From positions 30,758-94,757 of the forward strand of contig JBAZZT010000004.1 in the NCBI GenBank assembly GCA_041658705.1: DNA of 64,000 bases, read 5' to 3'. Position 1 is the first letter of the stretch; each line of letters begins with the position of its first letter. Below, piece after piece: positions 6,963 to 62,372 of this stretch. Source of the DNA: Patescibacteria group bacterium (lineage in GTDB: Bacteria > Patescibacteriota > Patescibacteriia > 2-12-FULL-60-25). The notes beneath the pieces were generated by a model that did no database searches, was not told the origin of the DNA, and saw only the letters and a program-made list of their open reading frames with translations. Both the position numbers and the translations under genes were made by a program.

Positions 6963-6967
6963 GGGTA

Positions 6968-11908: not shown

Positions 11909-11939
11909 TTCTTGATACTTTGACCCTTGGTCTGCTTAA

Positions 11940-11969
11940 TTGAAGTTTATTCATCCGTGCCTGTACAAT
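11940..11969 (+). promoter_or_regulatory. Candidate sigma70-type promoter (TTGAAG, 18-nt spacer, extended -10 TGTACAAT)
   Basis: ttgaag tttattcatccgtgcc tg tacaat lies 12 nt upstream of ATG 11982. Confidence 0.4.
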
Positions 11970-11981
11970 GCTCGGTACGCT

Positions 11982-18484: not shown

Positions 18485-18568
18485 AGGAGATGGTCGTTAG
18501 TCAGTTAAAAAGAAGTTGTCATTGCGAGCGCATATACCAAATGCGCGTGGCAATCTCTGATGGTTTTC

Positions 18569-18613: not shown

Positions 18614-18775
18614 GGTCATGGAACACGGAACATGGAGCACGGAACATCTTTAAATAGCGGAAAAATGCAGGATGCGAGCGTTGACAATAGGCTCGAATCA
18701 TGCCATATTCGGCGTAGCTCTTTCGCAACACCATAGGGCGCGAACCGGTCGCATGGGGCGATTGGGTAGTGCGAG

Positions 18776-19594: not shown

Positions 19595-19630
19595 CTCTGT
19601 CCCTCTGCCCTTTGACGCTCTGAACGTCAA

Positions 19631-25275: not shown

Positions 25276-25425
25276 TTCGGTCATTCAAAGAATTCCATGA
25301 GGCTCAAGGCAATCCGCGTCCACGACAAGCATGGAACCTTTTTCTTAGGGTGTCGCAGGTCTTCGGACTCGCTCTCCCCTATAAACAGGTTTCTTGGGTG
25401 CGGATTGCCTTGAGCCTTTTTGTTT
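25276..25425 (+). ncRNA. Candidate small structured RNA, class unknown
   Basis: A perfect 17-bp closing stem (ggctcaaggcaatccgc 25301..25317 with gcggattgccttgagcc 25400..25416) is followed by tttttgttt. It encloses 82 nt including a ggtc-uucg-gac hairpin. No ORF is present. Confidence 0.45.
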
Positions 25426-25438
25426 AAAGAAATACAAA

Positions 25439-25514
25439 GAATTTAGAATTTAGAATTTAGAATATAGAATTTGGAAGTTCGAATTCCACATTCCACATTC
25501 TAAATTCCAACTTC
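25439..25514. repeat. Word hairpin (GAATTTAGAAT / TTCCACATTC words) upstream of 25527
   Basis: Same word family as 27670..27742 and 60421..60499. Confidence 0.8.
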
Positions 25515-25526
25515 ACCTTCCGCTGC

Positions 25527-27658: not shown

Positions 27659-27669
27659 AGAGGGGGAAA

Positions 27670-27742
27670 GTGAATTTGGAATATGGAATTTAGAATGTGG
27701 AATCAGAACTTCCAAATTCCATATTCTATATTCTAAATTCAC
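27670..27742. repeat. Word hairpin (GGAATTT/AGAAT words) between the VanW and Hsp20 genes
   Basis: gtgaatttggaatatggaatttagaatgtggaat .. ttccaaattccatattctatattctaaattcac. Confidence 0.8.
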
Positions 27743-32000: not shown

Positions 32001-35000
32001 CACAGGCAACCCCACTGATCCGCAGAATGATTCCGCTGACGACACCGCGGCTTCCTTCGTGCCGAGCAAAGCCCAAGCTTGCAGCGCCGACGAAGCGGGT
32101 TGCGAAGAGCTGACTAATCTTGAAGCTTCGGCGCAAGGTGGCGAATCAAAACTTTTCTTGAGCTATGCGCGGGCTTGTAGCAAACCGGGTGACGATGCCA
32201 AGACCTTCTTCACCTGGGAGGGTTCGGAGGAGACGGGTTATCAATTGCGCACCTGGAGTTTAGTCAAAGAGCTTAACGCGGAGGGTCCGAAAATCCTGCT
32301 CAAAGCCGGTCCGGACGGCGTGCTCAAGGATCCGCAAGCCTGCACTGCCGCGACGTGGTCAGCCAAGACCGATTTGGATTGTCGTCAATTCTACGACGAG
32401 ACGGGCAAGGACTATTACCGTTATTATTCGCAAACCATCATCTCGAGCGTGGACTGCCGCGATTACCGCAAGAACAATTCGACTTCGGACGATTGCACCA
32501 AGACGAGCGGCGACCCGAATAACTACAATCCGACCAACAAAGCCTGCATCTATCACGTGCTGGCGAGCTTGAGCAACCAGTGCAAGGAAACCAACGCGGG
32601 CTGTCGCGGCTACCTGGGCACGACCGGGCGCAACACCGCGACCGTGTTGCACGAGACTTTCGCCGCCGCGACAAGCTCGCTTTTCTACGCGCCGAACAAT
32701 CAAAAGATCAAGATTTCAAACGAGGCGTTGCTGGTCGGCGATCATTCGCTGCAGATCCAAGCCAGCGACGCCAGCGTGGATTTCACTTCAGCCACCGGCA
32801 GCTTGTACACCGTGAGCTTCTGGCTCAAGACGACCAAAGCGGGGAGTGCACCGGCCAGCTTGAAACTGGGCAACACGGTCGTGGGTACGTTCAGCCTGGT
32901 GCCCGACTGGAAACGCTTCGAGGTCGGACCGTTCAAGGCCGTCGGCACCAAATCAAAGTTGACTTGGAGCGGTTTGCCCGATCCGTCCTACCTGGACGAA
33001 GTCGCGGTGGTCCGTTTGCAGGACGTGGTTTACGTCAAAAAAGATTCGTGGGTCATCCCGCCCGAGTGCGACCAGACTGCCGAAGGCATCCCGCAGCCGC
33101 GCGCCATGTTGGGCTGCCGTGAATACAAGAATCGCGCGGGCAAAGTCGAGGACGTGCGGCAATTTTCGCGCCTGTGCCGCTACGCCAGCATCGGCTGTAC
33201 CGCTTACGTCGACACACGCAACTCCGACAGTCCCTATGCCGAGACTTTCAAGCTCACCGGGCTGAACGTGCCGGATCCGAACAATCCCGCGAGCAAACTG
33301 TGGGATACGCTGTACGCGGGCGATTCAGTCGTCACTCGGCTGGCGGACCGCTATGTCTATGCGGTCGACGAGCCGGGCGTGCATTGCGCCGCCGACCAAG
33401 CTTCGTGCCGCGCGTTCGGCAAACCCACCTTCGATCCCACGGGTGCGCCATCCAGCACCTTCGAGACGGTTTATCTCAAAGACGACATCACGCAATATAT
33501 GGATGCGGGCGGCGAACCCAAGGCCTTGTGCCGACCCAAGGAACTTTTCTGCGATAAATTCACCAGCGGACAAGTCACCTCGTATTTTCGCGATCCGCTG
33601 AATCACGTCTGCGAATGGCAAGATAAAGTGGCGCTCAATAAATTCCCTGGACTGCCCGACGGCGAATATTCCGGTTGGTTCGTGATCGGCGCCGCAGTAC
33701 CCACGCCGTGTTATCCCGAAAAGATCTCGAGCGGCAATACCTTTTTGAGCGAATATTCCGGCACGCCTAATTACCGTGGTTGGACGGACACTTGCCCGGT
33801 CGAACAGTCGGAGTGCACCGAATATCGCGATTCCAACGATCACACCGACCTGGAACACCCGCAGGGCAAACCGTATTATTTCGTCGACAACAACCGGCTG
33901 GATAAAGCTTCGTGCCAAGGCAAAGTAGATCTGCTTTCCGGCTGCGTGCTGTTCCGCGACATGAACGACAGCCGCCTGACCTACAGCACCGACGCGACCT
34001 ATGCCAAGTCGCACGCGGACGGCGACGTATCCGTCGCACCAATCAATTGCAGTACCGATGCTGACAATCCGGCTTGCCAAAAAGTCGGATACTGCGTTAA
34101 CCAAAGATTCAAGATCTGGAGCAATACGAAGCAAGCCTACACGGGAGAGTCGTCGGACATGACGCAAATCCAAGAAACCAAGAAGCATATAAATGATAAA
34201 TGTACGACCGACAAAGATTGTTCGGTGACGGCGTCGGCCGTCGGTCCGTTGGCTGACGAATATCGTATTACCGGAACTTGCCAAGCCAATGACTCCAACC
34301 TGCTCGTCAAGGTAAAACTCGATCGCGATTGCCAGACCTGGCTCGGTTGCGCCAGCGGCGAGACCGTCTACGATCCGGTGCAGCAGAAGTACAAAGATTT
34401 ATGTACCGAACTCGCGACGTGCGACAAGGCGGGCGGGACGGGCAACCAATTCTGCTCGCATTACGTAGACCGTGTCAGCGCGCCGTCCGGCGTCGGTTTT
34501 CAGGAAAAAGTCATGCGTCAGGGCGCCTTCGTGGATTCCACGCTCTACGCTTCGCGTTCGGTCGGCTTCGGCGATCCGGATTATTCCAGCTTCAGCTTGC
34601 CGTACCATTTCCAAATCGCCGATCTGCAGAACCGGGCCGTGGGCTTTGAGCTCCTCGCGAACCATGCCGGTAAGGTGCGCAACAGTTACTCCGACGACTT
34701 CCGCCTGACCGCGGCCGTGCCCTTGGCGTTTGGCGGTTTTAACGCCCTCGATCCCTATGCCGCGGACATCATCAAAGACAATTTATATCCTTACCTAAAC
34801 CTGTGCCGCCATCGCCAGACCAAGGCCGTGGGTTATTATTTGGCCGACCCTGGGGATACGGCTATCCCGCGCAAACCAACGGAAAAAGTACCGCGCTGTT
34901 ATTTGGCGATTGACCGACCATATACCCAAGTCGCCTCCGACCTCCAAGGTTCGGGCGTCAACCCGCGCAACGCGCAGAATTTGGCTGATGTGTTCGAGCA

Positions 35001-38000
35001 GTCGGGCAACGTCAAGGCCAACCAACAACTTACCCAAGCCTTCCCTAATTCAGAATGCCGCTCATATCCCGAGACCAATTCTCCGTTCGACGCGCGCTTC
35101 GTCAAAGATTGGAATCTGGATGCCGAACCGCCCACGCCGCTGAATCTCGTCGAAGGTTACGCTGGCGTGCCGACTTGTGAGTACGGCGAAAATTGCGATT
35201 GCAGCTATCAAAAAGTCAATTACGCCAACCGTTCCAAATATTACGCGGCGTACGGCGCATCTTTCCCGCCCGGCGTGTGCCAGGGCGGTGATAAGGACGG
35301 GCAGGCTTGTCGTCCCAACGAGGGAAGCGGAGCCGTTGCGCTCACTCTTGCGCCGACGAGCACCGCAGGCGGCAGTGAAATCCCGGACATGAACCTGTGC
35401 ACCGGCGGCGGCTCTTGCGTGCCTGTGCAATCCTACAGCTTGATCCGTGGCATCGCCGGACAATGTTTGCAGCGCGACAATGCGCGCACCCTGGGCGGCG
35501 CCAAGGAATACAATCCTTGCTTGGTGTGGAATCCCGCGCCGGTGTTGTTCGGCAAAGATGACATCTACCATTATTATCCGACGGCCGGCTATCTGCCGCC
35601 TGCCGAATCAGGGGAGTACTACTGCGTCTCGGATGCGCGCGAGCCCCGCAGCTTCAAAACCAGCGTGGAAAACAACATCATGGGTTGGAATTGGTTCGAT
35701 AAAGATAATCCGCTGGTCTTGATCCAGAAAAATCTTGATACCTCCATCATCGCCGAACCACCGGGCAAGATGACGGCATTCTGGTTCGATGAATGTTTCA
35801 GCATGGATCCGGGCGGCGCCTCGGACAGCGACCTGCCCTTAGGTTGGTCCGGCATGCCCGGGTTTACGGGCAGCGGCAACGACGACGACTTCTACGAAAG
35901 AGCTTGTGGCTGGGGACACGCCTCGATCGACGGGACCAACGCGCGCGGCACGGATTCCGGAGCGAGTTGCGCTTGGGTCAGGACGCAGAATTCCGGCGCC
36001 AACATGGCGGCTGATTTTACGGCCGGCCGTTGGGTGACGACCGGACAGGGCGTGAGCCGGAACTACGCGGAATATTTCGTGCCCATCAATGGCAAGTATT
36101 GGGCCAAGTGGCTTTTGCAAAGCAAGACGGATCCGGGGGAAGTCGACATCAAGAACGCGCTGCTCGAAAAGAATTTCAGCTATTTCGACTTCAAGCCGCT
36201 CTACAAGACGGGCGCCGGCGGCGGAGCGTGCTCCTTGAGCGGCTGGTGGGCGGATGAGTTCCCGTTGGAGGGGACTGCCGCCGGCGTGGACAAGGGGCAG
36301 AACCAACTGATCAAGAACATCATGGCCGAGTGGAGCAAACTGACGTCGCAAAAATCCGATTTCGTGCGCAACCAAAAAGGCGAGCTCATCAAACTGCCGT
36401 GCTTATACAACGACAAGAACACGCAGGATGAGTCGGCCGACGATTATTGCTACTACAAATTCTGGCAAGCGGATTTTCGTGGCCAAGGCGCCAAAAAATT
36501 CCAGATGATGGATGATGACTTCGGCGGCGCGCACAAACTTTCCGCCCCGGACGTGCTCTACATGGAATCAGACGGTTCCAAGCCGTTCTTCTCGATCCGC
36601 GCCATGTTTGAGGACGCTTCGCTGACGGACAACGCCATCAAGGAAGAGGACATCAAAGGCAACAGCGGCAAACTGGGCGGCCCCTTCCGCTTCGTGGGTT
36701 GGTGGGTCACGGCCTCGTTCCCCGGCGCCAGCAACAACCGCTACATCTACATGACGCTCGATATCGGCCACGCCGACATCTGCAAAGAGGTGGCGCGCGT
36801 CAGGTCCTCGGTCAACGGCGACAGCGTGGCGTTCACGGATCGCGTTTGGGACGGATCAGGCTTTAGCCTGCCGCTCCTGGGTTATCTGTACGGCGAGACG
36901 AATGCACCGTTCGGTTCGGCGCGGCACACACGTGAGATCGGCATGGAGCCGCTGTTCCAAGTCAAAGACAAGAAAGTCGCCGCCAACTTCCGCATGAGCG
37001 TGGCGAAGCCGACTTTCATTTCCGCCGGCGCCAAATTTTTCCGCTTGGGTGAGTTGCCCAAAGCCAATTGGGCCTGGCTCTCCAACCTGTTCGCCAAAAT
37101 CTACAACGTCTACCGCTATTACGATTTGCCCGTCGACAAGTCCTCCTACGCCTGCGTGAGCGGGCCGCAGTTCGGCAAACGCTGCTCGCCGGATCCGCTT
37201 TCGAGCCAAAGCACCTGCGGCTGGCAGGGCACCTGCAACCCGACCCTGCTCCAAGTGGATGCGGGAAGCGCTTTCTGCAACTCGCTGTCCGGAGTGAACG
37301 CCGGCCAAGCCTGCGGCGCCGGCGGAGGCAGCGGACTCGGCAGCTATCATGTATGCCACGCTGCGCCTTTGCGTAACGTTGGCGGACAGCTCGCGCCGCA
37401 ATATGCGCCGTGCCAGGTGGATTCCGCGCTGTGGAGCACTAATAATGATCATTATACCTACACAGGCACGGCCAGTTCCGATCCGTTCAATGCTGTGACC
37501 GTGCAACATTGCATAGACGCCAAATCCACAAACTGCATTAACCTCACGCGAGCCACGGCGGCCCAGGCCGGAGCCTTCAAGTGCGCCAACAACGCCGTGC
37601 ATTTCCCCGACGGAACCCGCGCCTGGTGCCGCAAACCCAGCGGCGGCAATGCTTCGACGGATTGTCCGATTGAAGTGCACGGTGATTGCGATGGCACGGC
37701 AGGGCATTGCGCACCCGGCTGGCGCGACGGAACGTACCAGGCTCAAACCGGAGGATACGAATACGTCAAATGCAGCAATAAGGATTCGGATTCCGCATGT
37801 TCATTCACCTGGCAGAACTGGTGGTACAACGATATGAAGAGGGCTTCGGGTTTTCCTGAAAAGCCCATGCCTTACCCGGATGAACACGCCATCGTTGCAC
37901 AAGTGCAACACGCTGAAGGCGCGTTCTTCAACGTCCAAGTCGATCCCATCAACGGCAGTTACCCGATCAACACCAACTATCCGGTGAACGGTTGGGTGCC

Positions 38001-39963
38001 TGACCCGGCCACGGCCGCCAACATAAAGATCGAAGGCAACCTGTGGTGGATGGGCGGGGATTGGGGCGCTTGGGGTCAAATCGGCGATACCAACGGCGCT
38101 GATCCGGGCAAGGATATCGGCAGCAAGAATTTGGCCGGCGCCAGATATCTTGACCGGGCCGATTGGCAGGGCCTCAACAGATTCCCCGGAGCTTTCGTCT
38201 TCGCCGTGTCGGGGCAATATCTGTCCTGCAACGGTCCTGGCGATTGCGGAACTAAGCAATGGAGCGAGATGTACATCCCGGGACACTGCGAAGCGTTGCC
38301 CGTCGATTATCACGAGTGCGCAAATATCAAGAAACATGCTGATGCCATGGGGGAGGTGAAGGACTATAACAACGACGGTAAAAATGAGTGCCCGAACACC
38401 CCAGACATTCCGAATTATTCCTTGGTGACGGCCCAGCAATGGGGCGGAGGTCAGATTACCCTAACGAGATGGCACGGTGATAGCGCATCCAAGCTTGGTA
38501 TCTGCGAAGGCGGCGGGAATGAGGGCGGTTTCTGCACGGACAGCAAGGATTGCAAGCCGCTGTGGGTGGGCGGTAAGGAAACAGTCGAGTCGATGGAGTA
38601 TTGCAAGTCCGTGTCGAAAACTGACGGCACTCCGAACTCCGGCGCGTTCGGTGGCACGGCCTGGAGCTGTTTAGCCGATACCGGGGACCCTAACTCGAAC
38701 AACCCTGACCTTGACAACAACAGCTGTACCCATGGCGCCGGATATCAGAAGAGACCCGATGTGTGCGGCTTGGATCCCAATCGCGCCGATTGCCTGACCG
38801 GCATCTTGGAACGGGATACGGTCTCACCGCCGTCTTATGACCAAGCCCAAAGGACGCCGCCGACTGACGTGACCGCCGGCCTGTTCACGCCGTCTTACAT
38901 CGCGAAGTTCAACAATAATAACGACACGAGTTTGGCGCGGAATTATTCCTACATGGCTTACTACGCGCCGCGGCCGCCGCAGATCGCGGCACCTGACACC
39001 TCGCGCCAATGCCCTGGCCCGGGACAATGCCCCATCGCGCAAGTCGGCGCTTTCAGCCTGGACGGTACAAGCGAGGGCAAAGTGGCGTATGTCGGCGGGC
39101 AAGCCTTGTCTACGATTCGTTTCTACGGCTGGGCCGCGGACGATCAAGCCGGCCTCAAGGATCTGATCGTCGATTGGGGAGATGGACATCGCCAGCAGTA
39201 TCGCGACGTGCAGATGAAGAACAAAAAACCGTTCTGCGGCAGCACCAGGGAATGCGAATTCACGCCCGGCCTAAGCTGCACCACGGATCGCGATTGTCCG
39301 CCTTCGGCCGGCCGTTGCATCGAAGCTGGATTCTGCCAGAGCCAGCCTGCCCAACGCTGCCACCAGGACGCGGATTGCACGGCTCCGGGCGCAGCAGCGG
39401 AGGACAAGTGCGTGACTAGGCTCACCTTCGGCAACAGCGATGAGGATTGCGAGCAAAATTATTTCGAATTCACTCACGTCTACTCGTGTCCGCAGGTCAA
39501 TAATTTGGAGGCGTGCGGCGCGACATCGAGGTGCTCCGGCGACAATGACCGACCCTGCGCCGCCAACAATCCTTGCGCGCCGGGCGATCAATGCGTGGCT
39601 GGTTTGGCCAAGAGCGGCGGTTGCTTTGACAGCCAATTCTCATCTTGCCGCTTTACCCCCAAAGTTTATCTCAAGGATAATTGGGGTTGGTGCGCGGGCG
39701 AGTGCCGTAACGAAATCGCAGGCGGCAAACTCTCGGGCGGATTCGGAACCACCAACAAAGCGCTTTTGCCCAACGGCGGTTGCTACGGCGGTACGGATAT
39801 CTATCAAAACAGCGACGCCAAAGCGCTGCGGCCAGTCGGGACCGATGCGGCGAACAAGAATGTCTACGACATGTGTGACCCAGATAAATTCGTCGGACAG
39901 AAGACCAGTTATCGACCCTGGGTCGTATTCAAAGGCGCGCTGCAGTTGGGGGTAGGGAAGTAG
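29077..39963 (+). CDS. Giant secreted / cell-surface Cys-rich protein (3628 aa)
   Basis: Uninterrupted 10.9-kb ORF with an N-terminal signal/anchor FVLGGLTLVLALGTVIVAYP. About 138 Cys by hand count. Recurrent C-x5-6-C-x2-3-aromatic units. Two CBM/jelly-roll-like segments (NLVRNGSFED..LDDVQLEE; YTVSFWLKT..YLDEVAVVRL). PKD-like VDWGDGH near the C-terminus. Confidence 0.9.
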   Translation: MLPAWLSKNKNKFVLGGLTLVLALGTVIVAYPKKAEASLLQADPNAAIAARAQLCGYVTGAGTSPGATSIIGLMPECHYYEIYKAKVDMIQSTIQFGVVRALLGALQYGTQMIAQQTAQWILEGAHGKPSFWTMNWGEFLANVGEDAVNRFIGELDKTMQGWGLGSLCTPMSLNMRLALYIKPIVPQAFQGCDWAKMKGAFNQTKNTFSPTEIAANLRKSVQPGGNQIDMMLKVNSEILVNKEAAEKWYEKQRIETRGFKSITDLISGKIKTPAEVVDETVRQSNVVKLQHDVTTADINALAMAAFWAGFEQLPQVAASQFLNTLAVGALQKFFTWIFGGMTGGDETWYNLDLSDPFAQRSAQPKTDALQKAFSDMIIPDLFTNKDEDFVFEMTSCVEGSRSYWGCSMDEGLAQALRASAESGAYTVARAAGIGGTGASEYLHKDWELIPESEVKDNQDSGCYQRAYCASNLAKLRFARIIPLGWELAANSPFNVKANGRYVTLGQVVAGFNSCNAQGQVDAEHPWCHLINPAWVLTAPPFKCQLKGYGTTLAAPDTPMRQQECSDLVSCLKRDDKGKCLGQYGSCLSEKTVWRFGADSCDQKFVSCRTYQSRATGAHQGQNVSYIRNTIDYGSCNQDNVGCLYYATTRDVTTTSTERWVATTLEVKNKKGALAGYDIRQMPRVYFDATVQACDASSDGCTKVQRVNPGSPAFNLVRNGSFEDNLDNLPDKLVAWFDDNDNPVGQKPFNPATGPAYQSGQASYYNATTHQPVTLYPYRPYVLSFYARADGGAAPDVQVFLDLYQAPNKPVVTTGPAVYRSSNCSKKTQTSVGLSSFKPGNDWQRYTCEFSSNPDVRLGVLKISVKNAALDDVQLEEADRATDYIDGAADNLPVEHIKLPPEELGCKGDAKTDRKECADYALMCQATEAGCQGWSDAGDASGIEIPAIVSPLDRCPKSCVGYAEYRKLPSAFDLVNTGNPTDPQNDSADDTAASFVPSKAQACSADEAGCEELTNLEASAQGGESKLFLSYARACSKPGDDAKTFFTWEGSEETGYQLRTWSLVKELNAEGPKILLKAGPDGVLKDPQACTAATWSAKTDLDCRQFYDETGKDYYRYYSQTIISSVDCRDYRKNNSTSDDCTKTSGDPNNYNPTNKACIYHVLASLSNQCKETNAGCRGYLGTTGRNTATVLHETFAAATSSLFYAPNNQKIKISNEALLVGDHSLQIQASDASVDFTSATGSLYTVSFWLKTTKAGSAPASLKLGNTVVGTFSLVPDWKRFEVGPFKAVGTKSKLTWSGLPDPSYLDEVAVVRLQDVVYVKKDSWVIPPECDQTAEGIPQPRAMLGCREYKNRAGKVEDVRQFSRLCRYASIGCTAYVDTRNSDSPYAETFKLTGLNVPDPNNPASKLWDTLYAGDSVVTRLADRYVYAVDEPGVHCAADQASCRAFGKPTFDPTGAPSSTFETVYLKDDITQYMDAGGEPKALCRPKELFCDKFTSGQVTSYFRDPLNHVCEWQDKVALNKFPGLPDGEYSGWFVIGAAVPTPCYPEKISSGNTFLSEYSGTPNYRGWTDTCPVEQSECTEYRDSNDHTDLEHPQGKPYYFVDNNRLDKASCQGKVDLLSGCVLFRDMNDSRLTYSTDATYAKSHADGDVSVAPINCSTDADNPACQKVGYCVNQRFKIWSNTKQAYTGESSDMTQIQETKKHINDKCTTDKDCSVTASAVGPLADEYRITGTCQANDSNLLVKVKLDRDCQTWLGCASGETVYDPVQQKYKDLCTELATCDKAGGTGNQFCSHYVDRVSAPSGVGFQEKVMRQGAFVDSTLYASRSVGFGDPDYSSFSLPYHFQIADLQNRAVGFELLANHAGKVRNSYSDDFRLTAAVPLAFGGFNALDPYAADIIKDNLYPYLNLCRHRQTKAVGYYLADPGDTAIPRKPTEKVPRCYLAIDRPYTQVASDLQGSGVNPRNAQNLADVFEQSGNVKANQQLTQAFPNSECRSYPETNSPFDARFVKDWNLDAEPPTPLNLVEGYAGVPTCEYGENCDCSYQKVNYANRSKYYAAYGASFPPGVCQGGDKDGQACRPNEGSGAVALTLAPTSTAGGSEIPDMNLCTGGGSCVPVQSYSLIRGIAGQCLQRDNARTLGGAKEYNPCLVWNPAPVLFGKDDIYHYYPTAGYLPPAESGEYYCVSDAREPRSFKTSVENNIMGWNWFDKDNPLVLIQKNLDTSIIAEPPGKMTAFWFDECFSMDPGGASDSDLPLGWSGMPGFTGSGNDDDFYERACGWGHASIDGTNARGTDSGASCAWVRTQNSGANMAADFTAGRWVTTGQGVSRNYAEYFVPINGKYWAKWLLQSKTDPGEVDIKNALLEKNFSYFDFKPLYKTGAGGGACSLSGWWADEFPLEGTAAGVDKGQNQLIKNIMAEWSKLTSQKSDFVRNQKGELIKLPCLYNDKNTQDESADDYCYYKFWQADFRGQGAKKFQMMDDDFGGAHKLSAPDVLYMESDGSKPFFSIRAMFEDASLTDNAIKEEDIKGNSGKLGGPFRFVGWWVTASFPGASNNRYIYMTLDIGHADICKEVARVRSSVNGDSVAFTDRVWDGSGFSLPLLGYLYGETNAPFGSARHTREIGMEPLFQVKDKKVAANFRMSVAKPTFISAGAKFFRLGELPKANWAWLSNLFAKIYNVYRYYDLPVDKSSYACVSGPQFGKRCSPDPLSSQSTCGWQGTCNPTLLQVDAGSAFCNSLSGVNAGQACGAGGGSGLGSYHVCHAAPLRNVGGQLAPQYAPCQVDSALWSTNNDHYTYTGTASSDPFNAVTVQHCIDAKSTNCINLTRATAAQAGAFKCANNAVHFPDGTRAWCRKPSGGNASTDCPIEVHGDCDGTAGHCAPGWRDGTYQAQTGGYEYVKCSNKDSDSACSFTWQNWWYNDMKRASGFPEKPMPYPDEHAIVAQVQHAEGAFFNVQVDPINGSYPINTNYPVNGWVPDPATAANIKIEGNLWWMGGDWGAWGQIGDTNGADPGKDIGSKNLAGARYLDRADWQGLNRFPGAFVFAVSGQYLSCNGPGDCGTKQWSEMYIPGHCEALPVDYHECANIKKHADAMGEVKDYNNDGKNECPNTPDIPNYSLVTAQQWGGGQITLTRWHGDSASKLGICEGGGNEGGFCTDSKDCKPLWVGGKETVESMEYCKSVSKTDGTPNSGAFGGTAWSCLADTGDPNSNNPDLDNNSCTHGAGYQKRPDVCGLDPNRADCLTGILERDTVSPPSYDQAQRTPPTDVTAGLFTPSYIAKFNNNNDTSLARNYSYMAYYAPRPPQIAAPDTSRQCPGPGQCPIAQVGAFSLDGTSEGKVAYVGGQALSTIRFYGWAADDQAGLKDLIVDWGDGHRQQYRDVQMKNKKPFCGSTRECEFTPGLSCTTDRDCPPSAGRCIEAGFCQSQPAQRCHQDADCTAPGAAAEDKCVTRLTFGNSDEDCEQNYFEFTHVYSCPQVNNLEACGATSRCSGDNDRPCAANNPCAPGDQCVAGLAKSGGCFDSQFSSCRFTPKVYLKDNWGWCAGECRNEIAGGKLSGGFGTTNKALLPNGGCYGGTDIYQNSDAKALRPVGTDAANKNVYDMCDPDKFVGQKTSYRPWVVFKGALQLGVGK

Positions 39964-40000
39964 GGGCGCATGCCATGCGCCCGGCCGGTAGAGGGTAGCC
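39960..40000. repeat. REP-like palindrome overlapping the giant-gene stop codon, plus a GGTAGAGGGTAGCC word
   Basis: g TAG gggcgcatgccatgcgccc ggccggtagagggtagcc. Confidence 0.8.
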
Positions 40001-40011
40001 CGGAAAATGAA

Positions 40012-40112
40012 TTGTCATCCTGAGCGAAGCGCTAGCGAAGTCGAAGGACCTTTATCAGCCATCGGTTCAGACCAGCGCTTAAAAAGGTCCTTCGACAAGC
40101 TCAGGACGACAA
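40012..40112. repeat. TGTCATCCTGAGC..GAAGGACC family inverted-repeat element
   Basis: ttgtcatcctgagcgaagcgctagcgaagtcgaaggaccttt .. aaaaaggtccttcgacaagctcaggacgacaa. Confidence 0.8.
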
Positions 40113-40152
40113 ATAAAAAAAGAGCCCTCTTCGGAGTCGAAGAGGGTTTTTC
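40113..40152. terminator. Bidirectional rho-independent terminator
   Basis: A-run, then ccctcttcg gagt cgaagaggg, then ttttt. Lies between convergent genes. Confidence 0.7.
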
Positions 40153-40154
40153 TG

Positions 40155-40970
40155 TCAGGCAATCCGCGGCTTAAGTCCGCCTTGCAGGATGCGCAGGTGC
40201 GGCACGTCGCGGTGGCTGGAGAGGAGATGGAGCGTGCGCAAAGTCACGAAGTGGCTGGTCAGGAGATCTCCTTGCGAACCCCGTCGCGCATAATCTTGAA
40301 GCGCCAGCTTGATCCAACGTTCGACTTCGAGCGTGCCCTTGAACTCTTTCGAGCGGAGCAGATCCAGGGCGGCCGCGCCCAGCGGGGGCGGAGTCGAACC
40401 GTCGGGCAGGGTGAGCCGTTGGTGCATGGCGCGGATAAGATCCGTGTGGTCATTTTTTCGCTCTGACCAACTGGGCCAGTCCAGGGCCGGCGCCACGCAA
40501 ATTTCACGGAGTTCGGGCGACAGCTTGGGCGAGTTGTCGTTGTGCGCCGGAAAAGGATCGAGGCGGCAGGCGACCAGCATGAACGGGAAATCCTCACGCC
40601 ATTCCGCGAGCTCACGTTGGATGTCGCTCGGGATGTCGTCGCCACGCATGAAGAGCAACGACTTGCCTCGCACTTTGCGCAGCATGGCGGCGTCTGGATA
40701 TCTGTCGTCGATGATGATGGATCCGTTGCTTCCGCGTTGGCGGGCCAGTTGCACGAACAGGCTTTTGAGCTCCAGCCGTTCCAGATCAGGGATCTTGAGT
40801 GCCACGACCCAGCCGGCTTGGGCGCGGGAAAGCACTCCGGCGAGCAAGAGCTTCATGGCCGCACTTTTGCGCACTAGAGGAAAAAGCGTTTGAACCGTCC
40901 GTGCTTTTTTTCCAGCCATATCGCACCAGGTGAAAAGAGCCTTGTCCCGGATCCGCCGGGCCGGCGCCAT
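40155..40970 (-). CDS. Hypothetical protein (271 aa), possibly a degenerate AAA+/sigma54-activator-like domain without a Walker A motif
   Basis: Layout SLLFMRGDDIP..LVAC..WSERKNDHTDLIRAMHQRL..AALDLLRSKEFKGTLEVERWI loosely follows the GTLFLDEI..RxIAAT..LRERxEDI..WPGNVREL order. No GxxGxGK motif. The family call is weak. Confidence 0.5.
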   Translation of the reverse strand: MAPARRIRDKALFTWCDMAGKKARTVQTLFPLVRKSAAMKLLLAGVLSRAQAGWVVALKIPDLERLELKSLFVQLARQRGSNGSIIIDDRYPDAAMLRKVRGKSLLFMRGDDIPSDIQRELAEWREDFPFMLVACRLDPFPAHNDNSPKLSPELREICVAPALDWPSWSERKNDHTDLIRAMHQRLTLPDGSTPPPLGAAALDLLRSKEFKGTLEVERWIKLALQDYARRGSQGDLLTSHFVTLRTLHLLSSHRDVPHLRILQGGLKPRIA

Positions 40971-41109
40971 CGGTTAGAAAGCTAAGTGATATTAAGAGAA
41001 ATAAGCGGGAAAGTCAATACAGCTAGCTTGTTTTTCTCACCCGTATTGCTCCCCGACTCAATCTACCTGTAGACTACCCCATGAACACCCCCGCTCTCGA
41101 AATTAAACC

Positions 41110-42150
41110 ATGCCCGCCAACCCCTTCGAAACCCCTAAAAGTAAAATAGCCCCTGAACCTGTCGAAGGGCTACCTTATACTTCCGGGATTCGTCGGCAGG
41201 ATTTGCCGACCCACGTCAGGCGCTACGCCGATAAACTCGCTGCGCAGATAAAAGAAATCTACGCCAAATACGGAGCCGCTAACTTCGAGCAGTTAAAAGA
41301 GAACAAGAAGCTATCAGCTCAAGACGCACGCAAGGTGGCTGATTTGTTCAAAGCCTTTCAGAAAGCCATCGAGACTAAAGACGTTGAACTAGACCTCGAA
41401 GAAGCCATCGAAATCCTGGACCGCGAGAATGTCCACGGCGTTGAGGACGTCGAAGCCATGCTAGGCGAAGGTTTCGTCGATATCTCCAAAGTCCCACCCA
41501 TCCCATACACTCCTGAAGACCTAGCCAAATCCAAAGAGATCAAAGAGAAGACTGGCGTCGAAGAGATGCTCATCCTCTTCGTCGCTGACAAGGACGGAAC
41601 GCTACTCACGGGAGAACGCATGAACGGACTCATCCAAGCTGAATACACCAAGCTCGGCCTGGGTAAATTCCTGTTCAACACCGACTCATATAAGAACGAG
41701 GACTTCTTCAAGAAGCTGGGCTTTAACTACGAATGGAAGCTCATCTCCAAACAGACCATCCCCGATTCAAAGAACAAGCGCCATCATCACGAACCAGGAG
41801 ACAGCTTCACGCATCAAGACACCCAAGAGTTCGCCATCGAGGAATACGCGAAGAAACTTGATATTCCACGTGACCAATTACATCGTCCAGAGCCGTTCCA
41901 GATGCTCTACGCCACCGCTCTCCATCTGATTGCGACCGAACGCCTCAATGGCCAGGGCAAAGGCGAACGCATCCTCGTAAACGAGTATCACTGGTCTGAT
42001 GTTCTTTCCTCGGATGGGAGCTCTGTGCTCGTCGGCTATGCCGATGCGGACGGCGCGCGCGTGAGCGGGAGCTCCCGTGTCGCTCGGCTTGGTGGTCTGG
42101 GGGTGGGTCTTTCGCGTGAGCCTTTTTCTTCCAAATCCTTGGACACTTGA
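41110..42150 (+). CDS. Paralog C of the variable-protein family, adjacent to the TR-like element
   Basis: 346 aa. Same conserved body as 9832..10875 and 10898..11908, with a divergent C-terminal block. Confidence 0.85.
   Translation: MPANPFETPKSKIAPEPVEGLPYTSGIRRQDLPTHVRRYADKLAAQIKEIYAKYGAANFEQLKENKKLSAQDARKVADLFKAFQKAIETKDVELDLEEAIEILDRENVHGVEDVEAMLGEGFVDISKVPPIPYTPEDLAKSKEIKEKTGVEEMLILFVADKDGTLLTGERMNGLIQAEYTKLGLGKFLFNTDSYKNEDFFKKLGFNYEWKLISKQTIPDSKNKRHHHEPGDSFTHQDTQEFAIEEYAKKLDIPRDQLHRPEPFQMLYATALHLIATERLNGQGKGERILVNEYHWSDVLSSDGSSVLVGYADADGARVSGSSRVARLGGLGVGLSREPFSSKSLDT
42004..42150 (+). other. VR-like hypervariable block 3 (3' end of paralog C)
   Basis: Same length as the TR-like element. 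By hand count, 18 of 26 template adenines are substituted versus 14 of 91 other positions over 39 codons. Confidence 0.65.
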
Positions 42151-42175
42151 TACTTGACCCTTGGACCCTTAATTT

Positions 42176-42203
42176 TTGTTTTCGAATTTTTTTTTGGTAG
42201 AAT
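42176..42203 (+). promoter_or_regulatory. Candidate promoter (TTGTTT, 16-nt spacer, extended -10 TGgTAGAAT) for the TR-containing transcript
   Basis: ttgttt tcgaattttttttt tgg tagaat. Confidence 0.45.
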
Positions 42204-42439
42204 AATCACAGGTCATCCCGCTGCGGTGCGGCGGAATGTGCGGTCGGCAACGGTCGCATGGCTGTTGCACTCCTCGATTAAGGTCGCGGGGTCGCCTGCC
42301 TAATAAAAGAAGCTCACTGCTTGTCCTGTCCTGAAGCGGACTCTGACGGGGTCAGAGAGCGGCCGCTGCGTGATCATACAATGGGAACCGCCGGGATTTG
42401 GTCGAACCCATGCTGCCCAAGATGGGACAGGACAACAGA

Positions 42440-42586
42440 CGCTCCTCGGATGGGAACTTTGTGAACGTCGGCAACGCCGATTCGGACGGGGCGAACGTGA
42501 ACAGGAATTCCCACGACAATCGGAACGACAATCTCGGCGTTTGTCTTTCGCGTGAGTCTTTTTCTTCCAAATTCTTGGACACCTAA
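42440..42586 (+). repeat. Template-repeat (TR)-like copy of the paralogs' C-terminal block, Asn/AAY-rich
   Basis: Conceptual translation RSSDGNFVNVGNADSDGANVNRNSHDNRNDNLGVCLSRESFSSKFLDT. It has 9 Asn codons (AAC/AAT) among the 26 codons from GNF to DNL, exactly where the three VR blocks vary. Homology to the paralogs starts abruptly at cgctcctcgg. Confidence 0.65.
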
Positions 42587-42703
42587 CTCTTGAAGTTTGG
42601 ATTTTAGCATCAGCCTTTTTTCATCCGTCGATTTGGGGCTCATCTTGCATCGGACAAGCCTCGAACTTGACTTTTTTACCACCTTACTCTATTCTATGCG
42701 CAT

Positions 42704-42733
42704 ACTCGTTCCGGTTGGACGAGTTTATTTATT
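42704..42733 (+). terminator. Rho-independent terminator after the TR region
   Basis: actcgt tccggttgg acgagt followed by ttatttatt. Confidence 0.5.
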
Positions 42734-42736
42734 AGG

Positions 42737-42809
42737 CAATTACAAATGCCAAATGCCAAATTACAAATTATCCGTCAATTTGGCATTCGTAATTTGTAAT
42801 TTGTAATTG
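42737..42809. repeat. Word hairpin (ATTACAAAT/GCCAAAT words) ending 5 nt before the nusA ATG
   Basis: caattacaaatgccaaatgccaaattacaaatta .. aatttggcattcgtaatttgtaatttgtaattg. Confidence 0.85.
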
Positions 42810-42814
42810 TATAT

Positions 42815-44182
42815 ATGGCCTCCCCAATTTCCCAAGCTATCCGACAGGTGTGCGACGAAAAGAATTTGTCTTACGAATCCGTGCTTGAGACGGTCGAAGC
42901 GGCATTGGCCGCGGCTTATCGCAAGGACTTCGGCAATAAGAACCAGAACATAAAAGTCCAGTTCGATCCCGAGACGTATGACGGTGCGACGGCCGGCATC
43001 CGGGTTTTCGACGTGAAACAGGTGGTCGAAGACATGGAGCTGCCGCCGGACTATTTCGAGAAGTTCGAAGCCGCGCATGCCATCAAAAAGGATGCGCCGC
43101 GCCCCTCCGACATCATGCGCACCGCTCCTCCGGCACTCGCGCCGGCCGAGGAAGCCGCGCCGGCGGGCGAAGGCGAAAAGGCCGAAGACGAATTCGTCTT
43201 CAACCAAAAGACCATGATCATGTTGTCCGACGCGCGCGACCTCAAACCCGATGCGCAATTGGATGACGAGATCAAAGTGGAGTTGTCCGTGCCCGCGGCG
43301 TTCGGCCGCATGGCGGCGCAGACGGCTAAACAAGTCATCATGCAAAAGCTGCGCGAAGCCGAGCGCAACGTCATCTTCGGCGATTTCAAGGATCGCGAAG
43401 GCGAGCTCATGAACGTGACCATCCAGCGCCGCGAAGGCCGGGTCGTGCTCATCGACTTGGGTCGCGCTACGGGTGTGCTTTTGCCTGAAGATCAAATCGA
43501 AACCGAGCGTTATTTCCCCGGCGTGCGCATCAAAGCCATCCTGCGCGAAGTCACGATGACCAACAAGGGTCCGGAGATCCGTCTGTCGCGTTCGAGTCCC
43601 GGGCTGGTGGCCGCCATCTTCGCCCAAGAGATCCCGGAGATCGCCAACGGCATCGTGGAGATCAAGAACATCGCGCGCGAAGCCGGTTCGCGCACCAAAG
43701 TCGCGGTCACGGCGCATGACGACGCCATCGATCCCATCGGCTCGTGCATCGGACAGCGCGGCACGCGTATCCAGACCATCATCCGCGAACTGGGCGGCGA
43801 GAAAGTCGATGTCATCAACTGGTCGGCGGACGACGCGGAATTCATCACCGCGGCGCTTTCCCCGGCCAAAGCTTTGGATATCCGTTTGGACGCCGGGAGC
43901 CACTTGGCCACGGTCCATGTGCCGGCCGACCAACTCTCGCTGGCCATCGGCAAAGGCGGACAGAACGTGCGTTTGGCCGCCAAGCTTTCCGGTTGGAAAA
44001 TCACCGTCGCCGAAGAAAGCGGCCGCAAAGTCGCCGACTCCGACGTGGGCGAATTTGCAGGCGAAGAGAAACCTGAAAGCGCAGCCGAAGCGGACCAAAA
44101 AGAAGAAGTAACCAAAGTCGAGATCAAGGCGACTGAAGAAACACCTCTCGAATCCGAGAATAAGGAAAAAAAGAATTTATAA
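42815..44182 (+). CDS. nusA: Transcription termination/antitermination factor NusA
   Basis: 455 aa. NusA N-terminal domain, S1 domain (GELMNVTIQRREGRVVLIDLG) and KH domains (GSCIGQRGTRIQTIIRELGGEKVDVI; LAIGKGGQNVRLAAKLSGWKI). Confidence 0.95.
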   Translation: MASPISQAIRQVCDEKNLSYESVLETVEAALAAAYRKDFGNKNQNIKVQFDPETYDGATAGIRVFDVKQVVEDMELPPDYFEKFEAAHAIKKDAPRPSDIMRTAPPALAPAEEAAPAGEGEKAEDEFVFNQKTMIMLSDARDLKPDAQLDDEIKVELSVPAAFGRMAAQTAKQVIMQKLREAERNVIFGDFKDREGELMNVTIQRREGRVVLIDLGRATGVLLPEDQIETERYFPGVRIKAILREVTMTNKGPEIRLSRSSPGLVAAIFAQEIPEIANGIVEIKNIAREAGSRTKVAVTAHDDAIDPIGSCIGQRGTRIQTIIRELGGEKVDVINWSADDAEFITAALSPAKALDIRLDAGSHLATVHVPADQLSLAIGKGGQNVRLAAKLSGWKITVAEESGRKVADSDVGEFAGEEKPESAAEADQKEEVTKVEIKATEETPLESENKEKKNL

Positions 44183-44247
44183 TGATTAATTTCTAATGAC
44201 TAAATTCTGAACTGGCACTAGACATTAGAAATCAGACATTAGTCATT
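44181..44247. repeat. Word hairpin (TTCTAATG words) after nusA
   Basis: aatgattaatttctaatgactaaattctg .. ctagacattagaaatcagacattagtcatt. Confidence 0.75.
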
Positions 44248-44276
44248 CCGGCTACCCTCTACTCTCTACCCTCTAC
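44248..44276 (+). repeat. CT-word leader directly upstream of yidC
   Basis: ccggctaccctctactctctaccctctac, followed by ttt and the ATG. Confidence 0.8.
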
Positions 44277-44279
44277 TTT

Positions 44280-45044
44280 ATGATCGCACTCTTCAACCTC
44301 ATCATCTTCCAGCCACTCTTGAACCTGCTCATCTGGCTTTACCATGTGATCCCGGGCAGCGACTTTGGTTTTGCCATCATCGCGTTGACCATCCTGGTCA
44401 AGCTGGTCCTGTATCCTTTGAGCGCTTCGCAGATAAAGCAGCAACGCGCGCTACAAGAACTGCAGCCCAAGATGGACGAGATCAGGAAGCGTTTGAAAGA
44501 CGATAAAGAAGCGCAAGCTAAGGAGCTCATGGAGCTGTATCGCCGCGAAAAGGTGAATCCCGCGGCGTCGTGTTTGCCGCTTTTGATCCAGCTGCCCATC
44601 TTCATCGGATTGTTCCAGGCGTTGCGCGAAGGTTTGTCTTCGCATTCGCTTAACTTGCTTTATCCTTTCATCGCCAATCCGGGCGTGGTCAACAAGATGT
44701 TTTTGGGTTTCGTGGATTTGAGCCAGCCGAATTACATCCTGGCCATCTTGGGCGGTGCCGTGCAGTTTTGGCAATCCTGGCAGCTTTTCCGCAAGCCCAG
44801 CCCGACCACTCCGCCGCCGGCCGACGTCAAAGGCCAAGCAGGCACCAAGGACGAATCCATGGCCGCCATGATGAACAAGCAGATGATGTACGTCATGCCC
44901 ATCATGACGGTGGTCATCGGTTTCACTTTGCCGGGTGGACTCACGCTGTATCTCTTGGTCATGAGCCTTTTGACCGTGGCCCAGCAAGCGCTGTTCCTGA
45001 AAAAACCCCAGCCGCCAAAGGCAGAAGCGCAGTTGCAGCAATAG
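44280..45044 (+). CDS. yidC: Membrane protein insertase YidC (short Oxa1-type form)
   Basis: 254 aa. FAIIALTILVKLVLYPL, QxKMxxLQPKM-like QELQPKMDEIRKR, and CLPLLIQLPIFIGLFQAL. Confidence 0.9.
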   Translation: MIALFNLIIFQPLLNLLIWLYHVIPGSDFGFAIIALTILVKLVLYPLSASQIKQQRALQELQPKMDEIRKRLKDDKEAQAKELMELYRREKVNPAASCLPLLIQLPIFIGLFQALREGLSSHSLNLLYPFIANPGVVNKMFLGFVDLSQPNYILAILGGAVQFWQSWQLFRKPSPTTPPPADVKGQAGTKDESMAAMMNKQMMYVMPIMTVVIGFTLPGGLTLYLLVMSLLTVAQQALFLKKPQPPKAEAQLQQ

Positions 45045-45053
45045 TATTTATTA

Positions 45054-45105
45054 GTAGGGGCGGGGTTACCCCGCCCTTCGAGGGGCGCGGAAACCGCGCC
45101 CCTAC
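45054..45105. repeat. Two REP-like palindromes after yidC
   Basis: gtaggggcggggttaccccgccc and gaggggcgcggaaaccgcgcccctac. Confidence 0.8.
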
Positions 45106-49126: not shown

Positions 49127-49420
49127 ATGAAACTACGTCCGCTGGGTGACAGGGTGATCGTCAAAGCCCTACCCAAAGAAGAAGTGACCAAGACCGGGAT
49201 TATCCTGCCGGAAACGGTCGATAAGGAACGTCCGGAACAGGGTGAGGTCATCGCCGTGGGTCCGGGTCGTCTTTTGGATTCAGGTTCGCGCGCCGCGATG
49301 AACCTCAAAGTCGGCGACAAAGTCGTGTTCAAGAAATATTCGCCGGATGAGGTCAAGATCGAGGAAGTCGATTATCTCGTCATCGCCGAGTCCGACGTGA
49401 TGGCAGTGATAGAAAATTAA
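49127..49420 (+). CDS. groES: Co-chaperonin GroES
   Basis: MKLRPLGDRVIVK..GEVIAVGPG. Confidence 0.96.
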   Translation: MKLRPLGDRVIVKALPKEEVTKTGIILPETVDKERPEQGEVIAVGPGRLLDSGSRAAMNLKVGDKVVFKKYSPDEVKIEEVDYLVIAESDVMAVIEN

Positions 49421-49491
49421 AAATGCCAAATGCCAAATGACGAATTGAGAGGATATGACATTTGGCATTCGTAATTTGTAATTCGTAATTG
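49420..49491. repeat. Word hairpin (GCCAAAT/ATTACAAAT words) between groES and groEL
   Basis: aaaatgccaaatgccaaatgacgaattg .. catttggcattcgtaatttgtaattcgtaattg. Ends 8 nt before the groEL ATG. Confidence 0.8.
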
Positions 49492-49499
49492 AATGAACT

Positions 49500-51113
49500 A
49501 TGTCCAAGCAAATCATTTTCGACGAGAAAGCTCGGCAGGCCATGCGGCGGGGAGTGGATCAGTTGGCCAATGCGGTCAAGGTCACGCTCGGTCCCCGGGG
49601 CCGCAACGTGGTCATAGATAAAGGTTACGGCGCGCCCACCATCACCAAAGACGGCGTGACCGTGGCCAAGGAAATCGAGCTCGAAGACAAATTCGAGAAT
49701 ATCGGCGCGGAGTTGGTCAAAGAAGTCGCGTCCAAGACCAACGATGTGGCCGGCGACGGCACCACCACCGCGACCGTTTTGGCCCAAGCCATGATCGCGG
49801 AGGGCTTGAAGAACATCACCGCCGGCGCCAACCCGCTGGCGGTCAAACGCGGCATCGAAAAAGGCGTGGAAGCCATCGTGGAAGAATTGAAGAAGATCTC
49901 CAAGCCGGTGCAAGGCGGCGAAATCGAACAGGTCGCGTCCATCTCGGCCAACGACGCCGAGATCGGCAAGAAGATCGCTGACGCCATGAAGGAAATCGGC
50001 ACCGACGGCGTGATCACGGTCGAGGAAGGCCAGACTTTCGGCATCGAGACCGAGGTGGTCAAGGGCATGCGCATCGACAAGGGTTACAGCACGCCTTACA
50101 TGGTGACCAACCCGGAGCGCTTGGAAGCTGAATACAACGATCCGTACATCCTGATCACCGACAAAAAAATCTCATCCATCCAAGATATCTTGCCCACGCT
50201 GGAGAAGGTGGTGCAGACCGGCAAAAAGGAAATCGTCATCGTGTGCGATGACATCGACGGCGAGGCTTTGACCACGCTCATCGTCAACAAGCTGCGCGGT
50301 ACGTTCAACGCGCTGGCGGTCAAGGCGCCGGGTTTCGGCGACCGCCGCAAAGACCTGCTTCAGGACATCGCCGCCGTGACCGGCGCGACCGTCATCACCG
50401 AGGATCTGGGCCGCAAGCTTGATTCGGCCACGCTCGAGGACTTGGGCAGCGCGCACAAAGTCGTGTCCGCCAAGGATCATACGACTTTCGTCGGCGGCAA
50501 AGGCGATGAAGAAAAAATCAAAGCGCGCGTCGCGCAGATCCGCAAAGCGCTCGAGACCACGGAATCGGAGTTCGACCGCGAGAAGTTGCAGGAACGGCTG
50601 GCTAAGCTGGCCGGTGGCGTGTGCGTGATCAAAGTCGGCGCCGCGACCGAAGTCGAGATGAAAGAGAAAAAACATCGCATCGAGGACGCAGTCTCGGCCA
50701 CCAAGGCCGCGGTCGAAGAGGGTATCGTGCCGGGCGGCGGAGTCGCGCTCTTGCGCACCCAAAGCGCACTCGACCTGGTAAAAGTCGAGGGCGAAGAAGC
50801 GATCGGCTTGGCTATCCTGCGCAAAGCCATCGAGGAACCGATCCGCGCCATCGCGGAGAACGCGGGCAAAGAAGGTTCGGTCGTGGTGGAAGAAGTGAAG
50901 AAGCGCAAAGGCAGCGAAGGTTACAACGCGCTCACCGACACCTACGAAGATCTGCTCAAAGCCGGCATCGTGGATCCGACCAAAGTCACGCGTTATGCCT
51001 TACAGAACGCCGCCTCGGTCGCAGCCATGTTCCTGACCACCGAGTGCGTGATCACCGACAAACCTAAAAAAGAAGAACCCGCCGCACCCGGCATGGGCGG
51101 GATGGATTACTAA
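49500..51113 (+). CDS. groEL: Chaperonin GroEL
   Basis: 537 aa. [12 protein letters not shown] and the C-terminal GMGGMDY. Confidence 0.98.
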
Positions 51114-51114
51114 A

Positions 51115-51207
51115 CTAGAGGGTAGCTTGTAGACGGTAGCCAATGTAGGGGCGCATGCCATGCGCCCAGACGGTAGCCAAAATGTAGGGGCGCGGTTTCC
51201 GCGCCCT
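51115..51207. repeat. Composite REP cluster near-identical to the one after rpoC
   Basis: agacggtagccaatgtaggggcgcatgccatgcgcccagacggtagccaaaatgtaggggcgcggtttccgcgccc. Confidence 0.85.
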
Positions 51208-51262
51208 TTTGGTAATAGGAAAAATGCTGTTATGCTTCTGGAGGCTTGGATAGGAGGATGTC

Positions 51263-57151: not shown

Positions 57152-57260
57152 TTGTCATGGCGAGCGCATATACTGAATGCGCGCGGCAATCTCCGGATTC
57201 CAGAGATTGCTTCGTCGCGTTAAACGCGACTTCGTCGTTGCTACTCCTCGCAATGACAGG
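57152..57260. repeat. TTGTCATGGCGAGCGCATATAC..GCAATGACA inverted-repeat element
   Basis: The left arm matches 18516..18563. The internal gcaatctccgg and cgacgaagtcgcg words match 13090..13140. Confidence 0.75.
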
Positions 57261-60420: not shown

Positions 60421-60499
60421 AGGTGAATATGGAATATAGAATTTGGAATTTAGAATTCAGGTCTTCCATATTCCATATTCCAAATTCCACATTCACCTT
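60421..60499. repeat. Word hairpin (GGAATAT/AGAATTT words) upstream of the rRNA promoter
   Basis: aggtgaatatggaatatagaatttggaatttagaa .. ttccatattccatattccaaattccacattcacct. Confidence 0.8.
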
Positions 60500-60566
60500 C
60501 GGAAACGGCTCTTTTTAGCCCGAATTTCCATAATATTCAGCCCTCCGTGGAGCGCAAACCAGGCTC

Positions 60567-60866: not shown

Positions 60867-62372
<1,506 letters not shown>

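Follow-up and report, generated by a model that had tools for sequence, protein, structure and literature searches.

Probable remains of a template-RNA gene from an extinct multi-target DGR in a Patescibacteria chromosome

The window that we analysed, i.e., the whole stretch of 64,000 nucleotides, is a piece of the chromosome of a member of the Patescibacteria. It contains a bacterial 16S rRNA gene (60867-62372), and three paralogous genes in it (A, B and C) have homologs that are annotated as Patescibacteria. Since paralogs A and B are identical to proteins that carry the tag WC641_, the window belongs to the WC641_ MAG or to a near-identical genome; at least 21 full-length and two partial WC641_-tagged proteins fall into the family of these paralogs, which makes up roughly 1.5% of the genes of a very small genome. 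The exact proteins of A and B are present in the protein collection, and that of C is not. Between paralog C and the nusA gene (42815-44182) lies the element that concerns us here, a template repeat (TR) together with its leader; the variable regions (VRs) to which it corresponds are at the 3' ends of the paralogs. The features are listed below, with related loci cited as L001 and so on.

9832 to 10875, + strand: paralog A, identical to WC641_03365; variable block at ~10738-10836
10898 to 11908, + strand: paralog B, identical to WC641_03360; VR-matching region at 11762-11904
41110 to 42150, + strand: paralog C, 346 aa, target-type; variable block at ~42013-42111
42151 to 42658, + strand: segment comprising leader, TR, tail and a further ~50 nt, absent from the syntenic site in L015 (megablast, alignment)
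42195 to 42203, + strand: promoter-like extended -10 motif, TGGTAGAAT, after a T-run; position conserved across cassettes
42205 to 42439, + strand: structured TR-RNA leader, recognised from conservation, compensatory changes and a covariance model
42440 to 42547, + strand: TR body, from alignment with the three VRs, the site profile of 36 VRs and a codon-position control
42548 to 42607, + strand: VR-type 3' tail of the TR, from identity comparisons with VR_C and L061, the site profile and hairpin folding

Paralogs A, B and C are ~80% identical in their DNA and have no significant Pfam match. The C-terminal 250 aa of paralog C are homologous to the variable proteins of a canonical DGR in L004 (BLASTP E 2e-24 and 1e-20). 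With 81 diverse homologs as input, AlphaFold2 gave a model of the variable domain (paralog C residues 93-346) with a pLDDT of 96.1 and a pTM of 0.93; an earlier model built from 40 close paralogs was discarded (pLDDT 47). Foldseek found no match for the model with E≤0.001 in PDB or BFVD, its best and non-significant matches including TvpA (2y3c), FGE and EgtB, and searches of Pfam, NCBIfam and PDB sequences with the variable domain found nothing. Some relatives fuse this domain to an AAA_5 (MoxR-like) ATPase and adjoin a CobT-type VWA protein. A target homolog that is 42% identical occurs in L038 and L039:10001-10810 with neither a TR copy nor an RT within 10 kb on either side; the target family therefore also occurs without a nearby DGR.

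Several other features of the window deserve mention. A single ORF of 3628 aa (29077-39963) lies just upstream of the paralog C region. AT-rich palindromic repeats, with units like GAATTTAGAATTT or AATTACAAATGCCAAAT, are found between genes at 42737-42809, 49409-49507, 25425-25521, 27658-27740 and 60432-60500; they recur in many related contigs and look REP-like or terminator-like. GC-rich, hairpin-containing repeats follow genes at 6875-6975 and 51129-51223, at 18516-18557 and 57152-57193, and at 39944-39989, and one GC-rich 46-nt repeat pair is 100% identical (GTAGACGGTAGCCAATGTAGGGGCGCATGCCATGCGCCCAGACGGT).

A preliminary description of this DNA had reported that 42440-42586 is a non-coding copy of the last ~147 nt of the three paralogs, and our alignments bear out both the coordinates and the content. 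The copy starts 290 nt beyond the end of paralog C (42150), as had been stated; its conceptual translation was correctly given as RSSDGNFVNVGNADSDGANVNRNSHDNRNDNLGVCLSRE; and the onset of homology at 42440 is indeed abrupt, the preceding 12 bases matching the VRs in almost no sequence. The TR variable block (42449-42547) contains 25 adenines, every one of them at codon position 1 or 2, and there are 9 AAY codons in the TR body. We counted mismatches between the TR and each VR over alignment columns 21-128 and compared template bases by Fisher's exact test. The earlier hand counts were reproduced, with VR_A differing from the TR at 13/25 A and 15/80 non-A sites (p=0.0017) and VR_C (the former VR3) at 18/25 and 14/80 (p=8.5e-7); for VR_B the values are 14/25 and 12/80 (p=1e-4). 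Drift at third codon positions had been named as the explanation that could undo this adenine bias. The bias survives when these positions are removed: mismatches are then 13/25 at A vs 3/41 at non-A sites for VR_A (p=7e-5), 14/25 vs 7/41 for VR_B (p=1.3e-3) and 18/25 vs 3/41 for VR_C (p=6e-8).

The same pattern holds in a wider set of 36 distinct VRs of the gene family, gathered from the window and related contigs. Mismatch to the TR reaches 64% at the 25 A sites, compared with 12% at non-A sites in codon positions 1 and 2 and 31% at third positions (Mann-Whitney p=1.8e-11 and 5e-6 for the excess at A sites). The TR adenines with randomised counterparts span 42450-42531, and here all four bases replace them in the VRs, position 42494 for example being split 9/9/9/9. 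The TR adenines from 42555 onward are conserved in the VRs, and the mutagenised block thus ends before them on the 3' side. Conservation across the 36 VRs is 85% or more at the majority of non-A sites. The differences between TR and VRs lie overwhelmingly, if not exclusively, at TR adenines: each VR also has 9-24 mismatches to the TR among 83 non-A sites (11-29%), mostly at third codon positions, and this distribution points to drift under purifying selection.

The sequence that precedes the TR is also conserved. The window leader (~235 nt) is 87-88% identical in L001 and L026, and compensatory changes are present. In a long-range leader stem, 42320-42331 (CTTGTCCTGTCC) pairs with 42424-42435 (GGGACAGGACAA); it closes a domain of ~100 nt and ends 4 nt before the TR. 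An analogous covarying stem, with stem sequences that differ from those of the window, is located 5' of the TR in L004, L005, L006, L055 and L059, and in five RT-linked cassettes we found 21 covarying pairs over leader, TR and terminator. Leader structures were obtained from single-sequence folds combined with alignment within each group; a MAFFT/RNAalifold analysis across both leader groups was set aside because the 3' strand was misaligned. When a covariance model derived only from RT-linked cassettes was run with filters off, its best match in 40000-45000 was 42309-42443 (+ strand, 14.6 bits, E 0.0013); with default filters the same model missed the window leader, and it lends weak support to the homology of the leaders. 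Rfam, at both gathering and lax thresholds, yielded no relevant match in the window cassette or in L004, but only miRNA-like noise on AT palindromes.

Immediately upstream of the leader is the promoter-like motif (42195-42203). By sequence reading, it stands at the same position in L001, L026, L061 (TGGTAATAT), L004 (TGCTAGTAT) and L005 (TGCTATAGT), and in each of these cassettes the leader is preceded by a T-run and then TGnTAnnAT. A consensus promoter scan did not call the window motif because it has no -35 element. We consider the motif to be the putative start of an independent TR-RNA transcript. To judge from these sequences, the TR of this lineage of CPR DGRs appears to form a complete RNA gene of its own, composed of the promoter-like motif, a ~190-nt leader, the TR and a strong terminator (L004:10893-11232, L005:12001-12340, L006:5805-6142 on the - strand, L055:5345-5680 and L059:5345-5700). 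This covarying unit, for which Rfam has no match, is a candidate for a new structured RNA element of DGRs.

Complete cassettes show what would be expected around such a gene: they run in the order targets, promoter-like motif, leader, TR, strong terminator hairpin, antisense avd and RT. Three distant Patescibacteria contigs (L004, L005 and L006) have two targets, a TR, a hairpin with T-run, an avd gene on the opposite strand and an RT that matches PF00078 (E 1e-22 to 1e-23); the RT catalytic motif in the cassette family is YTDD. The TRs of these RT-bearing cassettes are homologous to the window TR, with 80% identity in L004 and about 75-77% in L005 and L006. In a BLAST search of all the loci examined with the L004 cassette, the window TR was the only match outside its own group, and no VR was matched. 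Within L004-L006, mismatches between TR and VR number 15-22 at A and 0-1 at non-A. The closest complete-type cassette is L061, in which a target that is 59% identical is followed by a window-type leader, a TR, a strong hairpin and an antisense avd, and then by the end of the contig; it has 74% identity to the window over 280 nt of leader and TR, and its TR/VR mismatches are 11 at A vs 4 at non-A.

Avd is present in L004-L006, L055, L056, L059 and L061, and its L055, L056 and L059 representatives were assigned to the PF22296 (Pfam bAvd) family. Its gene is on the opposite strand between TR and RT, at L004:11208-11588, L055:5655-5906, L056:5671-5988 and L061:~11691-12038 (all - strand), so that it points towards the TR terminator and away from the RT gene. 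We also noted that serine recombinases adjoin the cassettes in L055 and L059, and that one cassette (L062) is on an IMG/VR contig that is classed as viral.

The identification of 42440-42586 as a DGR template repeat, as originally put forward, is supported by its homology to TRs that lie beside Avd and RT genes, and by the promoter-like motif and structured leader that it shares with them; the homology to RT-linked TRs makes the case stronger than the adenine statistics alone. It is hardly credible, in our estimation, that no retroelement was ever involved and that the copy is a pseudogene fragment, or a donor cassette for recombination, with coincidental richness in Asn codons. Such a reading can appeal to the fact that this is a truncated gene 3' end in a recombining family, whose sister genes at the same position are ~80% identical vs 92-95% for their flanks. 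It does not account for the coincidence of adenines with variable sites, where all four bases serve as replacements, nor for the DGR TR-RNA-gene leader that the copy carries; moreover, the RT-linked TR cassette of L004 picks out the window copy alone among all copies in the examined loci.

Another observation concerns the 3' end of the TR. The tail (42548-42607) matches the end of the gene, from its last codons through the stop-codon region, and ~25 nt of the flank. That the 3' ~40 nt is conserved with a few mismatches, as previously noted, is correct (2/38 positions differ from VR_C), and across the 36 VRs fixed or near-fixed differences from the TR occur at 42557, 42573 (T in the TR, C in 36/36 VRs) and 42583. 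The comparison of this region to an IMH/IMH* pair, on the other hand, may need revision. From 42548 onward the tail has 74% identity to the VR_C tail and flank vs 54% to the 3' end of the L061 TR; the 3' end is better read as VR-type, and the IMH* of L061, the closest complete cassette, is clearly different. Furthermore, the hairpin of the window tail, which is followed by UUUU, is weak (-12.2 kcal/mol, z -0.44) as compared with that of L004 (-27.1 kcal/mol, z -6.3). In sequence and predicted folding, the tail appears to be unlike the IMH*-plus-strong-terminator arrangement of complete cassettes. A short similarity after the TR (CATCCGTCGA) to the 3' end of avd (CATCCGCCGA) is too short to decide, and we claim no remnant of that gene. 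L054, a contig from an independent short-read assembly (Logan SRR8449812) that corresponds to window 42536-45097, breaks inside the VR-type tail, as is expected for a repeat.

We searched for the enzymes by tblastn. Two RTs of the cassette family detected no RT at E≤1e-3 in the 64-kb window, L001, L026 or 47 paralog loci. At E≤10 the window gave only weak matches; the best of them (E 0.027), the ORF at 18698-19630, has no Pfam match and was treated as chance. The ORF just after paralog B (11940-12893) is GalT-like and was ruled out as an RT. Four Avd queries found no Avd in the window, L001 or L026 (E≤5, with one chance-level match) or in the 47 paralog loci. Those of the loci that come from two sister metagenomes, Ga0265292 and Ga0265296, amount to ~434 kb of unique sequence and surround about twenty paralogs that belong to the same MAG. 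Among the best 120 database relatives of the RT, none has a WC641_ tag.

The VRs likewise offer no sign of recent homing, in that identity to the TR at non-A sites is absent in 36/36. The TR has private bases at 42475, where 33/36 VRs differ, and at 42490, where 31/36 VRs have C and one shares the G of the TR; further TR substitutions, at 42513-14 and 42573, are rarely or never found in VRs. At several of these private-substitution sites, the TR of L061 agrees with the VRs. VR_A differs from its closest sister-strain relative (L015) by 8% at A sites and by 8% at non-A sites, and the paralog proteins are mostly recovered identical on two contigs; these are consensus assemblies, in which low-frequency variants within a population are invisible. 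The preliminary description had implied a working DGR, and it is this implication that finds no support: the screened DNA yielded neither RT nor Avd, and every VR has 11-29% non-A mismatch vs 0-1 mismatches in working relatives.

In a DGR, the cDNA that RT and Avd make from the TR RNA contains misincorporations opposite adenines and comes to replace the 3' end of the target (PMC5758913, PMC6182149). We consider it probable that window 42195-42607 is the fossil of a truncated TR-RNA gene that belonged to an extinct multi-target Patescibacteria (CPR) DGR in a groundwater bacterium. About twenty paralogs, including the three of the window, would once have had their C-terminal variable blocks rewritten by this DGR, each of them independently randomised at the TR adenines. 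Transcription of the template would have started at the promoter-like motif. The part comprising hairpin, avd and RT would later have been lost, perhaps when the TR recombined with a paralog's VR and so acquired its VR-type 3' end; the RT would then be missing from the rest of the genome as well. Since that loss, the VRs would have been frozen and drifting under purifying selection, while the TR gained private substitutions.

The related loci form a decay series: leader, TR and avd in L061, leader and TR in the window and L001, the leader alone in L026, and none of these in L015, where the paralog abuts the nusA promoter directly. In the second TR copy (L001:11325-11462), 6/25 of the adenine positions of the window TR hold another base, mostly G. 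L060:5185-5330 may represent another decay state of the cassette; here, a 685-aa target (63% identical in the variable domain) is followed by what appears by eye to be the first leader hairpin, and then by an AbiEii gene.

The history of the family can be read from pairs of VRs. Their differences at A sites are saturated (~0.65) at any gene-body identity (0.77-0.93), so that pairs with gene bodies 87-93% identical are already saturated; at non-A sites the differences grow as the bodies diverge, from 0.11 to 0.26. Saturation at all body identities indicates that paralogs were randomised independently, and until late in the expansion of the family. Diversification thus continued until fairly late in family history, a point to be set against the fossil interpretation. 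In the sister strain (L011, L015), paralogs at the same position are only ~77-81% identical, compared with 92-95% for the flanking genes, and the closest relative of paralog A occupies the paralog C position in L015; from such comparisons, the target family would appear to be either recombination-shuffled or very fast-evolving.

Other points also temper the view that the locus is a fossil. An RT/Avd module may lie outside the DNA that we examined, and the retention of all AAY codons, together with the closeness to working TRs, would also fit a template under selection. We have therefore weighed the possibility that the DGR is split and still works, its self-transcribed TR RNA being used in trans by a remote or mobile RT/Avd, with rare homing. 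In this DGR lineage the TR unit is equipped with a promoter-like motif and a terminator of its own and avd is antisense, so that TR RNA is not co-transcribed with the RT; 25 adenines and 9 AAY codons are retained; canonical cassettes adjoin serine recombinases, and one is on a viral-classed contig; action in trans and incomplete loci have been documented in another bacterium (PMC10907252); and the screened portion of the MAG is only about half a megabase. Nonetheless, we judge this explanation unlikely. In the literature, action in trans is recognised by a perfect match at non-A sites (PMC10907252), which 0/36 VRs attain, the minimum being 9/83 mismatches. In addition, hardly any VR, if any at all, shares the private substitutions of the TR; the 3' end of the TR is VR-type and its terminator degenerate; WC641_ proteins are absent from the best 120 RT relatives; and one VR is unchanged between strains. 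It is more doubtful still that the chromosomal leader and TR are specifically the RNA half of a split DGR whose RT/Avd acts in trans, from elsewhere or upon arrival on a mobile element, a mobility at which the cassette copies linked to serine recombinases or found in IMG/VR hint. If true, the presence of the enzyme would decide when one template could rewrite the ~20 scattered paralogs.

We also noted that some VR groups are 5-8% apart at non-A sites, yet differ from the window TR at 9-16/74 of them. Groups that share non-A sequence unlike that of the window TR could have been copied from another TR. Were such a template elsewhere still live for these paralogs, 42440-42586 would be a dead duplicate. 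The MAG has at least two TR copies (in the window and at L001:11325-11462), and the VR groups agree with one another at non-A sites better than with either. We nevertheless hold a live template elsewhere to be very improbable: the closest VR pairs are still 5-8% apart at non-A sites, whereas co-templated VRs in L004-L006 are 0-1 sites from their TR, and neither further TR-like copies nor an RT were found in ~0.7 Mb of loci.

On the fossil interpretation that we prefer, the locus shows what remains of a DGR after its enzymes: a template in which the formerly variable positions can still be read, and a large protein family whose hypervariable tips are frozen. DGR finders start from the RT and demand near-perfect identity at non-A sites, and so would miss both this locus and its ~20 targets. 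The gene organisation of this CPR lineage, with a self-contained TR RNA gene, a covarying leader and antisense avd, could guide work on how RT recognises its RNA.

The locus is not a new kind of system. CPR DGRs have been described as a 'CPR set' with UVR-class variable regions (Wu et al. 2018, PMC5758913) and as DGR clade 2 (Roux et al. 2021, PMC8144416). The window TR is homologous to the TRs of canonical Patescibacteria cassettes, as is the variable domain to that of their targets, where it is fused to an AAA_5 (MoxR/midasin-like) ATPase; midasin matches were noted for UVR4 targets by Wu et al. (PMC5758913). As in clade 2 (PMC8144416), the targets have no recognisable membrane domain or other known domain. 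The window differs in that RT/Avd were not found and the VRs depart from the TR at non-A sites as well; furthermore, its targets are short (~340 aa), lack the ATPase, and occur about twenty to a genome, the largest target count given for one DGR by Wu et al. being eight (PMC5758913). Thiohalocapsa PB-PSB1 (Doré et al. 2024, PMC10907252) resembles it in having scattered paralogous targets and in that RT, TR or accessory genes are missing or broken. There, however, an intact TR exists to which the remote VRs are identical wherever the template base is not A, and the majority of these VRs are variable in natural populations (PMC10907252); here no VR matches, and an intact locus was not found in the examined DNA. 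With the prototype, the DGR of Bordetella phage BPP-1, the window shares adenine-specific differences, AAY codons, a C-terminal VR and a conserved 3' homology block. It departs from BPP-1 in that the 3' end of its TR is nearly identical to the IMH region of the VR rather than a distinct IMH*, and this CPR lineage departs from it in having avd antisense and after the TR, and a TR RNA with a long structured 5' leader and its own terminator.
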